A stretch of DNA of 44,451 bases from Paraglomus brasilianum (Eukaryota): NCBI GenBank assembly GCA_910592345.1, contig CAJVPI010000187.1:1-44451 (forward strand), given 5' to 3'. The position numbers were made by a program, and so were the translations under genes. Shown here piece by piece: positions 21,586-31,379 of this stretch; the stretch's first letter is position 1; each line of letters starts with the position of its first letter. The notes below the pieces were generated by a model that did not search any database, was not told the DNA's origin, and saw only the letters and a program-made list of their open reading frames with translations.

Positions 21586-21806
21586 TGTGGCGTAGACTTT
21601 GGGCGTAGGAGAGCTGACTCTCTATAAGAAAACAAAAATTTTGATTTGCCCAAACGCGTTACGTCATCGACGAAAAAAGCTGGATGTTCGTCAATCCGTT
21701 GAGTGTCTTGCCTTTAGCAAAACTGCGGCAACTGTCGGTAGTAAACGCCTCCTCTATACTTTGTTATATAAGGTTGTAGAATTGCAACATCAATTCTGCT
21801 TACAAT

Positions 21807-22769
21807 ATGGCAACTTTTACACGAAGAGAAACTGCTGAAATAGAAGAAACAACAACGGAGTCGCACGAGACGACAGATCAAAACAGACCTGAAGTCATCA
21901 TGCCCATACCTATTAGACCAATTAGGGCTACTCCTATTGCTGTTCGTCCCCGGCCTCCGACTCCCAACTCGGAATCACCCAAGCATAAAATGAGAAAGAC
22001 TGAGCGCTCAAGTGATGGCGCTGTCAGCTCGGAAACGGAACAGGATGAGGCATATAGCCAAGCGAATTCAAACAAGATTACCAGACAGGCACAAGAGTCG
22101 AATGACGAGACTGAAAGAATGAATAATTCTACAAGTAGTTCAGCCAACTCGACCAATTCAGCAGCAAACAAAGTTAGCCTTGAGAATCTCACGACTATGG
22201 CGAACGGCGAGCCTAGGAGTGTTGACGGTAATAGCAGAAATAATACAACTAATGTTCGCATGAATAATACACCCGAGATTACGACAAAATACAATGTCGT
22301 CAAAATAGCTCCCAAGATTGCTCCCAAGATTGAGGATAATCGACAATCAGTCATCGATTTTGATAAAATGGTTGACGATAGATCGAAACAAAAGCTATAT
22401 CCATGTCCAAAGTGCGATAGGCCGTTTTCTCGTAAGTTTAATATGGAGTCGCATCTCACTACTCACGACCCACACCGAGTAAAACCATTCTTGTGTGATT
22501 ACCTTGGGTGTGGGCACCGCTTTACGAGAAAACATGATCTGAAGCGTCATGTTAATGGTATTCACAAATGTGAGAAGCAGCATCGATGTCCTCACTGTGA
22601 AAAGACTTTTGCAAGAAAAGATGCCTGGAAAAGACATTCATTTACATGTACCATAAATACTGAAATTCCACGTATGGAGAAGAAGATTGATTCCGATGCT
22701 GTGCGGATAAGTTTATTAGCGAATGCTGATGCTACATCTGTTGTGGCAGAAAACTACGTAAATAAATAA
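21807..22769 (+). CDS. C2H2 zinc-finger transcription factor (3 fingers), intronless
   Basis: CPKC...HLTTH, CDYLGC...HVNGIH, CPHC...HSFTC after a low-complexity N-terminus. Confidence 0.9.
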   Translation: MATFTRRETAEIEETTTESHETTDQNRPEVIMPIPIRPIRATPIAVRPRPPTPNSESPKHKMRKTERSSDGAVSSETEQDEAYSQANSNKITRQAQESNDETERMNNSTSSSANSTNSAANKVSLENLTTMANGEPRSVDGNSRNNTTNVRMNNTPEITTKYNVVKIAPKIAPKIEDNRQSVIDFDKMVDDRSKQKLYPCPKCDRPFSRKFNMESHLTTHDPHRVKPFLCDYLGCGHRFTRKHDLKRHVNGIHKCEKQHRCPHCEKTFARKDAWKRHSFTCTINTEIPRMEKKIDSDAVRISLLANADATSVVAENYVNK

Positions 22770-27034: not shown

Positions 27035-29681
27035 ATGAAAGTAATATACAAATTACTTAAGGCTATTGAGGAAGATAGACCCTACTGGTCTTTCGAATAC
27101 TTCCCTCCAAAAACCCAGCAGGTGAAGTATTTTCTAGCGCATTACAGCAAACAGCATATCTGAGCCGTATAACTGAACGCGTCGTCTGTGCAAACTGACG
27201 AAAACGAGGGAATTCAATTACCCCCCCAGGCGACTATATCTTGAGTTGCATGTCACTTGTGTTTGATACCCCAGCAGACGACACAGCTTTTGCCCGATAA
27301 TCATTCTTTCCCATCCTTGCTGTTTTCTTCTACATTGTTCGAAATTGCTCATGATATAACGGTTTGATTATACTAGGCGGTGCAAAATCTCTATGATCGT
27401 ATGGAACGGATGTATAGACTGGGGCCCGAATTTATCGATATAACATGGAACGCTGGCGGAGGCTCGTCGCATTTGACAACAGAAATTACTGCAATAGCAC
27501 AGTCGGTGTACGGATTGGAGACGATTATGCATCTGACTTGTACCAATATGCCAAAAGAAAAGATTGAAAAAGCTCTCAAGGTGAGTTAATTGTCTTTCAA
27601 TATTTATTTGGCGATAGATTTTCCTTATTTGGTATATGCTGGTAGTATGCAGTGTGCACTAATTCATCTCATTTATTTAACATTTCCGATTTAATAGGAT
27701 GCAAAGGAAGCCGGATGTCAGAATATTCTTGCTCTTCGTGGCGATCCACCCCGTGGACAGGAGCAATGGGAAGCATGCGAGAATGGCTTCTCCTATGCCG
27801 TAGATCTAGTCAAGTACATTAGAGAACAATACGGAGATTATTTCGGCATTTGCGTAGCTGGTTATTGTGAAGGTCATACTGATAATCCGGATAAGGAAGA
27901 CGATCTACGCCGATTGAAGGAGAAGGTGGACGCGGGTGCAGACTTTATTATCACTCAACTGTTCTTTGACGTAGATCTGTTCTTAGAGTGGGTAAAGAAA
28001 TGCCGTGCGATTGGCATCACCTGTCCAATAATTCCAGGCATTATTCCCATTCAGAACTATGCTGGTTTTAAAAGAATTATTGCTCTGTGCAAGACCATTG
28101 TTCCTCAATATATCTTGGAAGATTTGGAACCTATCAAGGAGGATGATGCAGCCGTAAAAGAATACGGTATAAAACTGACTGTGGAAATGATAAAGAAGAT
28201 GTATGCCCATGGAATCAAGGGCTATCATTTTTATACTATGAATTTAGAGAGATCAACCAGATTAATTCTCGAGAAGTTAAACTTTGTGCCACCTATAGAA
28301 AAAGCCAAGCCGTTGCCTTGGGTTCCAGTACGTATATTAGACTCTGCTACTACTACTATTAATATAACTGTTTTATTACTCACGTAACATGTGTATCTCA
28401 TATTACTTTTTCCCCCCCCAATAGAGTCTGGCTGCAAAACGCAAAAAAGAAAACGTACGGCCAATATTCTGGCGAAACCGAACGAAAAGTTATATCGCGC
28501 GTACTGAAGCCTGGGATGAATTTCCTAATGGCAGATGGGGTGACGCATGTTGACCCGGTATGTAATACTTTTGGTTACGCATCACGATTAGTATTTTCAT
28601 CATTATCTAATTTGATATTGCCGCTCAATTATTTAGCTTTTGGAGAACTAGGTGGCTATGGAATATCACTGAAGCATACGGTAGGTTTCGTAGATAATGA
28701 TATTATCATTCAGCTTTTCTGAAACGAGTAGTACTGACATACCTTATTCTTACAGAAACAGGAAGCGATTGATCTATGGGGAGATCCACAAACAATTACA
28801 GACATTTTTGATCTCTTCGTTCAATACTGCAATGGAGAATTGCAAGCATTGCCGTGGTCTGATCAAGCATTGGCAGAGGAGTCGAGTGTCATAAAGGACA
28901 ATTTGGTATACATTAATTCATTAGGCTATCTGACAATAAATTCTCAGCCCGCCGTCAATGGTGTTCGTAGTGATCACAAGGTTTTCGGATGGGGGCCTAA
29001 GAATGGTTATGTGTATCAGAAGGTAGAGTGTTGAGACTGTAGCAATGATAAAGTTGGAATAATATCGACTGTTGGTTAACTTGCTCCCCCCCCCCCCCAA
29101 TTTTCAGGCTTATCTCGAATTTTTCGTGGCACCAGCAAAGATTGATGCGCTGATAGCAAGAATAGAGTGTGATCCTAATATAACTTATTATGCCGTAAAC
29201 AAACAGGTTATCATTCGTTTATTATTTCTTTACATGTCGATTAACGTTTAATTGAATGTTTTCTAATTTTCGGCTTGTCCTTGTTAGGGTGACCTAAAGA
29301 CAAACACTCAAAGTGATGGCCCCAATGCTGTTACGTGGGGTGTATTTCCGGGTAAAGAAATAGTACAACCAACAATTGTCGAAGCCGTTAGCTTCATGGC
29401 ATGGAAGGTATATATATACACTGTCGTTATGGAATAAATCGCTCGCTTGTATTTCTCACATTGTTTTTGATTGAAACTAGGACGAAGCTTTTGACCTCTG
29501 GAGCGAATGGTCGAAATTATATGAAGAGGGTTCCGGGTCTGCAAAGTTAATTAGTGACATTGCGGAAAACTGGTATTTGATCAACATAGTGCATAATAAT
29601 TTCCATGATAAGGACAGTATTTTTGAAATTTTTGAGAAAGATGACGGATTAGATGATGATTTAGTTAATGCTGGTCGCTAG
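27035..29681 (+). CDS. MTHFR: Methylenetetrahydrofolate reductase (Met13-type), 9 exons, 594 codons, with an in-frame TGA at codon 350
   Basis: Exons 27035-27121, 27377-27580, 27698-28327, 28425-28557, 28637-28680, 28756-29022, 29108-29206, 29288-29407, 29481-29681. Motifs [76 protein letters not shown] at 28551-28553. Confidence 0.95.
27181..27282 (+). ncRNA. Candidate structured RNA in MTHFR intron 1
   Basis: Perfect 8-bp closing stem GTCGTCTG/CAGACGAC enclosing further stems, inside an unusually long 255-nt intron. Confidence 0.5.
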
Positions 29682-30506
29682 ATTTTGGAACTATTCTGCA
29701 ATATAAAGACAGATATTTGAAGCCGACCAGTTACATAATAATGCGTGACTATGTCTGCATAGGGAGATATAGTCTGACCCGATAATGTGATGATCATATT
29801 TTTTTTCAACAAATTCCTATGAATTCATTAAAAACGGTCAAAAATGTTCTAATTTTCATGAATGGCCAATTATTTCGTCAGGGGCAGTGTCCAAATTATA
29901 ATACGTGCATGTTAAAGTAACAACTATGTTTACTATATTATACTCCCGTTTTTGTCAGTTGCAAATAAAGTTTATTGTCAAAAGATAATACTAATTTTAT
30001 GATATCGACCATCAACGCTTACAACACATCTTACTCTGTCGACAATACTTTGGGATCCCTATCTGTCGATTACCTTTGTCTTGTTAGTTCCAAGCAATAT
30101 ACGTACTGTGAATCGGGTGACACTGAAAGTGAAAATAATCAATCCTCTGTCCCAGTGACTAATTGAGATTAAATAATATTTTAGCATCGCAGCGACATCG
30201 CAAAAAATATAGATCAACTCTGCATACGTACGTCGACAATGTCTTTCCAGACACGAATACATTCACAACATTTTCATTACCGTCTCCATCTTCACTAGCT
30301 ATGAATATGAAGCGAAAGCTTGATTATTACGTGTATTAAAACACACGTGAACGCGCCTTTAAATACGTTTATGATCATTTACTAGTGTGACTCCATCTAA
30401 TGTCCTCCATGAAGGCAAATACATCCCGCCGTCCCGCAACATGTCCTCCGTTCGTACAAGGGGGATGGTTCTTGGGGCGATCGATCTTAAAAAACAAAAT
30501 AAAGAA

Positions 30507-31026
30507 AAAAACCAGGTTAGTACATCCATGGGCCGGATGGTGGCCCCGACGACCCGATACTGGAACGGGATAATTGATCACACTCCCTTCGCCGGCACAA
30601 GGAGTGTGATTGCACTCCAACAAACGGAGGGTGACCTTCACATGTGGAAGGGGTGGGTGCACTTCAACAGAGTGAAGGGTGAAGATGACACATCCGTGAC
30701 TCGGATGACGACTCTCATAGCGAGAGGGTAAAAAAAAAATACACATCCACAAAGGAGGCACATAAAAAACCAGGTTAGCACATCCATGGGCTGGATGGTG
30801 GCCCCGACGACCCGATATTGGAACGGGATAATTGATCACACTCCCTTCGCCGGCACAAGGAGTGTGATTGCACTCCAATAAACGGAGGGTGACCTTCACG
30901 CGTGGAAGGGGTGGGGCACTTCAACATAGTGAAGGGTGAAGATGACACATCCACGACCTGGATGGTGACTCTCATTTGAGCAAGAGGGTAAAAAAAAAAA
31001 GCACACTTCCACAAAGGAGGCACATA
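30507..31026. repeat. Two tandem ~258-bp GC-rich direct repeats built from short spaced palindromes
   Basis: AAAAACCAGGTTAG...GGAGGCACATA occurs at about 30507-30764 and 30765-31026 with few differences. Confidence 0.92.
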
Positions 31027-31379
31027 ATGCACTTTCATGGAGAAAGGTGAACTGTCATGCAACCAAATGAAAGGTCGCGAAAAAAGCCGCCTGTGCATCA
31101 CGTAAGGCCTAATTTTACCACAGTTGAAAGTTACGAATCAAGAATCCTGCAACACGACGAGCACAACCAGCAGCAGCAATAGTAATATAAGCGTCTACCT
31201 TCCACTTGGTCTTCTCTCGTTGGTGCACGTTGGTGTTTGATGGGGGAAAAAATTTACCTATTCCAACGGGACGCGGAGTAGTTTATATTTATGCCACACA
31301 GCAGGTGCCACAGTTCAACTAAGCGCCACAATCATTATCAGCGCCACGCAGTTCAATTCCTTGTAAAACCGATGATACA

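Follow-up and report, generated by a model that had tools for sequence, protein, structure and literature searches.

The first intron of the MTHFR gene in this window (the whole stretch of 44,451 nt that was analysed) is spliced at its distal acceptor. The reading we favour, tentatively, is that it is an ordinary long first intron whose nested stems are likely to serve as a housekeeping zipper, looping out an internal acceptor that is probably dormant, with no sign of ligand sensing. The limits of the intron, its distal splicing, an internal branch-like site followed by an AG, and stop codons on either unproductive path were all observed directly; the zipper is a matter of predicted pairing.

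The MTHFR gene and the splicing of intron 1

The gene is of the MET13 type and runs on the forward strand from the ATG at 27035 to the stop at 29681, with nine exons and eight introns. Its exon-3 translation is 95% identical to that of Paraglomus occultum (P0001) and 79–84% identical to those of other named arbuscular mycorrhizal (AM) fungi, and the Pfam domains PF02219 and PF21895 (catalytic and SAM-binding regulatory, respectively) were found on P0121 and P0001. The host is a Paraglomus-like AM fungus. The features of the gene and of the splicing of intron 1 are as follows.

27035..29681, + strand: MTHFR gene, catalytic plus SAM-binding regulatory domain (translation, homologues, Pfam, RNA joints)
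27035..27121, + strand: coding part of exon 1, 29 codons
27122..27376, + strand: intron 1, 255 nt, phase 0, GT at 27122 to AG at 27376 (sequence and RNA joints)
27100..27299, + strand: unspliced exon-1/intron-1 contig of run X4, depth 8.9 (run guessed to be RNA, may hold DNA)
27161..27163, + strand: in-frame TGA reached on retention of intron 1 (translation)
27194..27199, + strand: internal branch-like ACTGAC (sequence), mostly unpaired in the fold ensemble
27221..27229, + strand: internal cryptic acceptor CCCCCCCAG (C7-AG, AG at 27228-29; sequence)
27242..27244, + strand: TGA after the cryptic AG, inside the hairpin GCGACU/AGUUGC (translation)
27348..27352, + strand: likely distal branch CTCAT, its A 25 nt from the intron end
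27374..27376, + strand: productive distal acceptor TAG (joint in six of eight runs)

Intron 1 is long for its gene, as the initial annotation had noted: the seven other introns measure 73–117 nt. It also has a GC content of 0.43, and of 0.43–0.50 in its core inside an AT-rich gene, against 0.28–0.33 in six of the seven others and 0.45 in the remaining one. The internal branch-like site, the AG that follows it and the premature TGA beyond were likewise found in the sequence and its translation as first described. If used, the internal acceptor would give an intron of 108 nt and a message reading GCG ACT ATA TCT TGA, with a stop at codon 34; the stretch between the two acceptors (147 nt) is in frame, yet contains stops. 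Retention of the whole intron leads to a stop at codon 43, which lies earlier in the intron than the stop reached through the cryptic acceptor.

The internal site resembles the true acceptors of the gene, the hexamer ACTGAC being identical to the likely branch of intron 5 and C tracts being present in introns 3 and 6. The acceptor contexts in intron 1 are CCCCAG/GCGA (internal) and UACUAG/GCGG (distal). An internal cryptic site of such grade (branch plus pyrimidine-YAG) is uncommon, not rare: among 5000 shuffles, 5.9% contained an equal one by a strict definition and 16% by a loose one, and 21 of the 348 tiles cut from the window did so too. An origin of the site by duplication of the acceptor region was rejected (p = 0.96), as was descent from a small transposon whose terminal repeats would be the core stem: no target-site duplication could be made out by eye, and the window has no further copy.

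Transcript evidence came from 8 of the 24 listed runs, all examined as assembled contigs with a depth of about 5–20. RNA contigs join all eight MTHFR introns. For intron 1, the distal joint skipping 255 nt is present in six of the eight runs (X1, X2, X4, X13, X16 and X22), confirming the distal TAG as the productive acceptor; X10 has a loose end compatible with this joint and the X5 contig ends short of it. Between the two junctions 27121>27230 and 27121>27377, only the distal one was seen in these eight low-depth contig sets. The zero count for a joint to the internal acceptor at 27229 cannot show absence at such depth and is weak evidence, because contigs lose rare forms and nonsense-mediated decay (NMD) would deplete the product.

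The unspliced contig occurs in X4 alone (1/8 runs), where it stands beside a spliced contig of depth 11.1. It passes through the internal AG and carries an additional C in the pyrimidine tract of the cryptic site, which is tolerated in that strain and leaves the predicted fold unaltered. The same strain shows no substitutions in 178 nt of the intron against two in 207 nt of exon 2, too few for significance. The end of this contig at 27299 (with no loose end) and the lack of an intron-1 contig in the other seven runs are evidence neither of absence nor of a transcript end. A peptide reading through from exon 1 is also recorded from two ENA contigs, which may be of RNA or of DNA. The unspliced X4 contig fits unproductive splicing.

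Predicted structure of intron 1 and its donor

The features below are all predicted; the donor hairpin and the zipper-like outer stem were absent from the initial annotation.

27095..27132, + strand: 12-bp hairpin, exon-1 AAUACUUCCCU paired across the donor AG/GUGAAGUAUU (slash at the splice site), probability 0.98
27146..27156, + strand: 5' arm of the zipper-like outer stem, pairs with 27318-27328
27181..27189, + strand: 5' arm of the core stem, GUCGUCUGU, pairs with 27274-27282
27230..27249, + strand: hairpin GCGACU/AGUUGC directly 3' of the cryptic AG, probability 0.95–0.99
27274..27282, + strand: 3' arm of the core stem, GCAGACGAC
27318..27328, + strand: 3' arm of the zipper-like outer stem

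All of the complementary arms that had been named are present in the sequence, but the fold that they make could not be set apart from chance. Compared with shuffles, the fold of the whole intron is ordinary (z = 0.02), and that of the core is borderline: the 102 nt from 27181 to 27282, with ends chosen on the helix, give z = −2.46, and the strongest local fold over the full intron has p = 0.04 for a span of 110 nt, 0.29 for 70 nt and 0.22 for 130 nt (400 shuffles each). A perfect 8-bp Watson–Crick stem appears in 29% of 2000 shuffles, and no repeat copy of the intron was found in the window. A count of long stems, which had given P = 0.005–0.015, was discarded because its thresholds had been set after the stems were seen; threshold-free stem scores against shuffles and real tiles give P = 0.10–0.93. 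The borderline p-values for features of this intron are all post hoc.

The individual helices fared unequally. The hairpin GCGACU/AGUUGC is predicted with near certainty, and the core stem GUCGUCUG/CAGACGAC has a pair probability of 0.68–0.91, falling to 0.20 with full flanking exons, while GGGAAU/AUUACCC reaches only 0.05–0.13. The helices CAAAC/GUUUG and UGAC/GUCA, which had been proposed to bury the internal branch point, are minor in the ensemble, at 0.11–0.14 and 0.18–0.24, respectively; such branch-burying helices have a probability of 0.11–0.24 in intron-centred folds and of 0.03–0.05 with full exons. The branch-burying model lies at −23.7 kcal/mol, 3.5 above the MFE of −27.2, and within the core, burying the branch by force costs 2.3 kcal/mol or more over the MFE. 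A riboswitch of any class acting here would have two folds of nearly equal energy, one hiding and one exposing a splice signal.

The donor hairpin pairs 27095–27106 with 27120–27132, making the donor of intron 1, by prediction, the most occluded of the eight in the gene, a degree of occlusion matched by 3% of 1500 shuffles. A pairing of exon 1 with GAGGGAA at 27206–12, which would free the donor, was tried and rejected (probability 0.0, 12.8 kcal/mol above the MFE). The outer stem depends strongly on the state of the splice signals. Its probability is 0.93 when both the donor and the distal 3' end are kept single-stranded (the core stem then being at 0.92 and the hairpin 27230–49 at 0.98), against 0.09 unconstrained and 0.0 with flanking exons. 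It encloses the core stem and has 8 core pairs and linkers of 24 and 23 nt, 47 nt in all. A zipper stem in yeast is described as one of at least 6 bp with 42–85 nt linking the donor, the stem and the branch point (PMC12350175), and the outer stem falls within these sizes, its branch point being a likely one and the stem predicted. The further criterion is at least 70% helix confidence from probing together with an effect on splicing; the values here are predicted probabilities only. Among 400 shuffles, 9.75% produce some zipper and 3.75% produce one with at least 8 bp; the constrained MFE is unremarkable, with 39% of shuffles as low. Opening the internal site costs 8.4 kcal/mol, a value matched by 32.5% of shuffles.

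There are precedents for such an arrangement. Introns of Saccharomyces cerevisiae are reported to contain zipper stems, as well as others that cover cryptic 3' splice sites (PMC12350175), and intron 1 is like these introns in its length, in a stem of at least 6 bp and in stems adjoining a cryptic acceptor; it differs from them in that its stem is predicted, holds only with the splice signals open, and belongs to an AM fungus. On the zipper reading, once the splice signals are open the outer stem would enclose the core stem and the hairpin 27230–49, so that the donor would come close to the distal branch point while the internal acceptor is looped out. The exon-1 hairpin, in burying the donor, is predicted to slow donor recognition. 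Slow splicing would leave some intron-retaining transcripts, which through their stop at codon 43 would pass to NMD, and this loss would be a fixed cost and not a regulated switch. Retention of first introns with premature stops and NMD is described as common in Yarrowia (PMC2911113). The distal joint in six runs, the unspliced X4 contig and the predicted fold that survives the additional C of X4 also count in favour of this reading. Occlusion of the internal site would be only partial because the internal branch itself is mostly unpaired. The low probability of the outer stem in unconstrained folds, its loss with exons and the lack of enrichment in threshold-free stem tests argue against the zipper, as do the unremarkable constrained MFE and cost of opening the internal site.

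Intron 1 in relatives

Direct searches for relatives of the intron gave little. The core-stem pattern was found at 116 loci in metagenome contigs, none of them MTHFR by tblastn and none the intron by blastn, and the exon-1/donor patterns and the protein had no match in viral or GTDB contigs. An indirect source was provided by erroneous peptide predictions in which translation continues past exon 1 into intron sequence; 44 such peptides were listed, one being the window's own. In eight of these, exon 2 can be recognised by eye after about 50–90 nt (one is from a named aphelid and the others read as Mucoromycota- and Basidiomycota-like); the remainder either end before this could be judged or are ambiguous. 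One peptide, P0129, has an exon 1 identical to that of Rhizophagus proteins and runs for 53 codons without reaching exon 2, and its intron is therefore at least 159 nt long. In addition, among 26 named proteins of Glomeromycota there are 4 incomplete models whose first residue falls exactly at exon 2. Judged by these read-through peptides and exon-2-start models, intron 1 occupies an old position and may be of considerable length throughout the AM fungi.

The similarity between the intron part of P0129 and the intron in the window did not amount to evidence of homology. Local alignment of the back-translated peptide gave p = 0.11–0.15. An anchored pair-HMM gave p = 0.005–0.07 against whole or 190-nt shuffles, a signal lost under block-shuffled controls (p = 0.10–0.16 against 25-nt block shuffles and 0.06–0.15 against block-shuffled peptides); we read it as a shared composition gradient.

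Ligand sensing, small RNAs and regulated splicing

Searches for known RNA families were negative. Against Rfam 15, with E up to 10, the intron gave only unrelated matches of 12–18 bits, none at the gathering threshold, and no riboswitch or snoRNA family was matched; among the known riboswitch classes (TPP, SAM, SAH, THF, ZMP and others) there was no covariance-model match. The motif UACAGA(G/A)A, which at 3' splice sites controlled by METTL16/METT-10 overlaps the acceptor within a stem-loop, is absent from both acceptors of intron 1; it stands instead at intron 5. No paper on an intronic switch in MTHFR or MET13 was found in the literature searched, which consisted of main texts, with most subscription journals outside its scope.

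Box C/D snoRNAs are marked by RUGAUGA (the C box) towards the 5' end and by CUGA (the D box) towards the 3' end, and box H/ACA snoRNAs have the layout hairpin-H-hairpin-ACA with pseudouridylation pockets. In intron 1, the closest approach to a C box departs from it at two positions, and the D-like boxes downstream are only UUGA, CAGA and similar. No Watson–Crick complement to rRNA of at least 10 nt was found at k = 10–13 among words common to at least 3 of 17 eukaryotic rDNA loci (18 of 51 fetched loci, chosen by length, less one duplicate; non-AM eukaryotes, with partial LSU). The sole 10-bp match, to SSU, uses 2–3 G-U pairs and lies inside the most stable hairpin. The atypical C/D snoRNA suggested in the initial annotation lacks canonical boxes, an Rfam match and a complement of at least 10 nt to the rRNA words shared by these loci. 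An H-like AAACGA is present at 27202 and ACA at 27281 and 27283, and the pairing predicted for the core stem cuts across both hairpins that an H/ACA snoRNA would form here.

The suggestion that the 102-nt core is an aptamer for SAM, SAH, folate or ZMP controlling the choice of acceptor has some points in its favour: the host gene encodes a SAM-regulated folate enzyme, and the core, closed by a stem and made up of several (p = 0.04 for a single span), lies across the cryptic branch and AG. The closest known systems are the fungal TPP riboswitches of Types I–III (PMC5882874, PMC3597705), which share with intron 1 a gene of a cofactor pathway, a structured intron of 200–400 nt and a stop on the unproductive path; the size of intron 1 lies within the 200–400 nt of the Type III introns (PMC5882874). 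These switches are described as acting through alternative donors, Type III being defined by a pair of alternative donors that enclose an in-frame stop and precede the TPP aptamer (PMC5882874). Unlike them, intron 1 would switch acceptors, has no match to the TPP aptamer and only one donor joint in the eight runs, and lies in a gene outside thiamine metabolism. The MET13 family itself has a proposed SAM/SAH riboswitch, a conserved 53-nt hairpin in the 3' UTR of Debaryomycetaceae and Metschnikowiaceae, which the source describes as having support from covariation and as binding neither SAM nor SAH (PMC8216456). Like the fold of intron 1, it is a structured RNA element of this gene family; the structure in the window is intronic and predicted. 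An alternative pairing of 27235–45 with 27348–58, the region of the likely distal branch, is possible but has a probability of 0.0 and costs 7.5 kcal/mol over the MFE (in folds without pseudoknots), and the branch-burying state is also of low probability. With no Rfam match either, we consider such an aptamer very improbable, and with it the broader proposal of a new non-TPP riboswitch for SAM or folate in AM-fungal MTHFR, switching between the productive acceptor and the poison acceptor or retention, which is just as doubtful. None of the intron-1 features at p = 0.03–0.10 bears on ligand binding. The length and GC content of the intron would be accounted for if it instead hosted a small RNA, be it an atypical snoRNA of the C/D or H/ACA type or some other stable RNA, and a stem-closed domain of about 100 nt with H-like and ACA elements is consistent with this, as are the atypical intronic snoRNAs with poor boxes reported in fungi (PMC5640933). 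The box mismatches, the lack of a complement of at least 10 nt to the shared rRNA words, the core stem pairing across both would-be hairpins and the negative Rfam search make this improbable. Both the riboswitch and the snoRNA readings are unsupported and unlikely.

Regulated unproductive splicing is the proposal that a protein, or SAM-dependent methylation of the RNA, reads methyl-cycle status and directs transcripts through retention or the internal acceptor to NMD. Its model is sams-3 intron 2 of Caenorhabditis elegans, controlled by METT-10 through m6A at the 3' splice site (PMC8208822), which shares the methyl-cycle context and the three-isoform layout: a productive distal acceptor, an upstream cryptic acceptor and a retained form, the last two with premature stops. 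The depth of the unspliced X4 contig, near that of the spliced one, is in keeping with this, as is the length of the intron in the Rhizophagus-like P0129 compared with the eight peptides in which exon 2 follows sooner. The donor of intron 1 has A at +4, placing it in the class sensitive to U6 m6A, and sensitive introns are described as having exon ends weakly recognised by U5 (PMC8163875); exon 1 ends in CAG, close to consensus, which by extension from that source would protect it. Control of worm sams-3 requires UACAGA(G/A)A at the acceptor (PMC8208822), and, unlike sams-3, neither acceptor of intron 1 carries it, use of the cryptic site is unseen and the gene is MTHFR, not a SAM synthetase. 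Retention in one run of eight, the internal joint in none and the non-significant similarity of P0129 against block shuffles also argue against regulation, which we regard as unlikely. A fold without function, in which the intron grew through a GC-richer stretch that brought stems and a cryptic acceptor with it by chance, accords with the whole-intron z of about 0, the presence of an 8-bp stem in 29% and of the cryptic site in 6–16% of shuffles, the threshold-free stem scores and the lack of a repeat copy in the window. Set against it are four separate features each near p = 0.03–0.10, the GC content of the core in an AT-rich gene and the substitution-free intron stretch of strain X4, where the differences are too few for significance; we hold this explanation to be rather unlikely.

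Were a riboswitch present after all, it would bring a second ligand class to eukaryotic riboswitches, the cited literature naming TPP alone for fungi and plants, and would place an RNA-level brake on MTHFR besides the SAM-binding domain of the enzyme. If the zipper reading holds, intron 1 would join the structured first introns that conceal a cryptic acceptor, a modest addition, though from the AM fungi, a group with little work on RNA structure so far.

Acceptor of MTHFR intron 5

The acceptor of intron 5 of the MTHFR gene reads UACAG|AAAC (28751–28759). This sequence matches, letter for letter, the METT-10/METTL16 motif of the acceptor that is regulated in worm sams-3, and it occurs only once in the whole window. 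In mouse, 916 of 403,563 acceptors carry such a motif (PMC8208822), and this rate puts the chance of finding one among eight introns at ~2%. A weak stem (MFE −3.2) is predicted at the acceptor, in which part of the motif is paired; when the motif was held open in folding, no fold was predicted. Of the 15 arbuscular mycorrhizal (AM) fungal proteins aligned, 8 have K or R as the first residue of exon 6. RNA contigs from all four of the sequencing runs compared for this intron (4/4) show it spliced.

In-frame TGA in exon 4 and the opening of exon 2

Exon 4 contains an in-frame TGA at 28551–28553, where the homologous proteins P0001 (Paraglomus occultum) and P0122 have Ser and where P0121 skips the six surrounding residues. 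The longest exon-4 contig of each of four runs carries a one-letter difference over 28425–28556, and one contig of run X10 has a Ser codon in place of the TGA. The TGA is thus likely to be either a nonsense allele or a mistake in the assembly.

The first codon of exon 2 (27377–27379) is GCG, giving Ala as in P0001; nearly all other fungal proteins among the matches listed, P0122 included, have Gly at this residue. The same triplet also lies directly 3′ of the internal acceptor in intron 1. Four AM fungal gene models (P0019, P0024, P0026 and P0123) are partial and begin exactly at the start of exon 2, from which intron 1 may be a frequent break point for assemblies or gene callers.

Other loci and database matches

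Downstream of the gene, at 30375–31137, reading frames on both strands overlap and encode repeated blocks of peptide, a pattern that suggests a tandem or interspersed repeat. A reading frame at 21780–22769, with a long low-complexity region followed by C2H2 zinc fingers, is probably a transcription factor gene. Eukaryotic rDNA contigs were seen inside dozens of GTDB prokaryote assemblies (L117–L167; at least 51 stretches, ~220 estimated) and are contamination.
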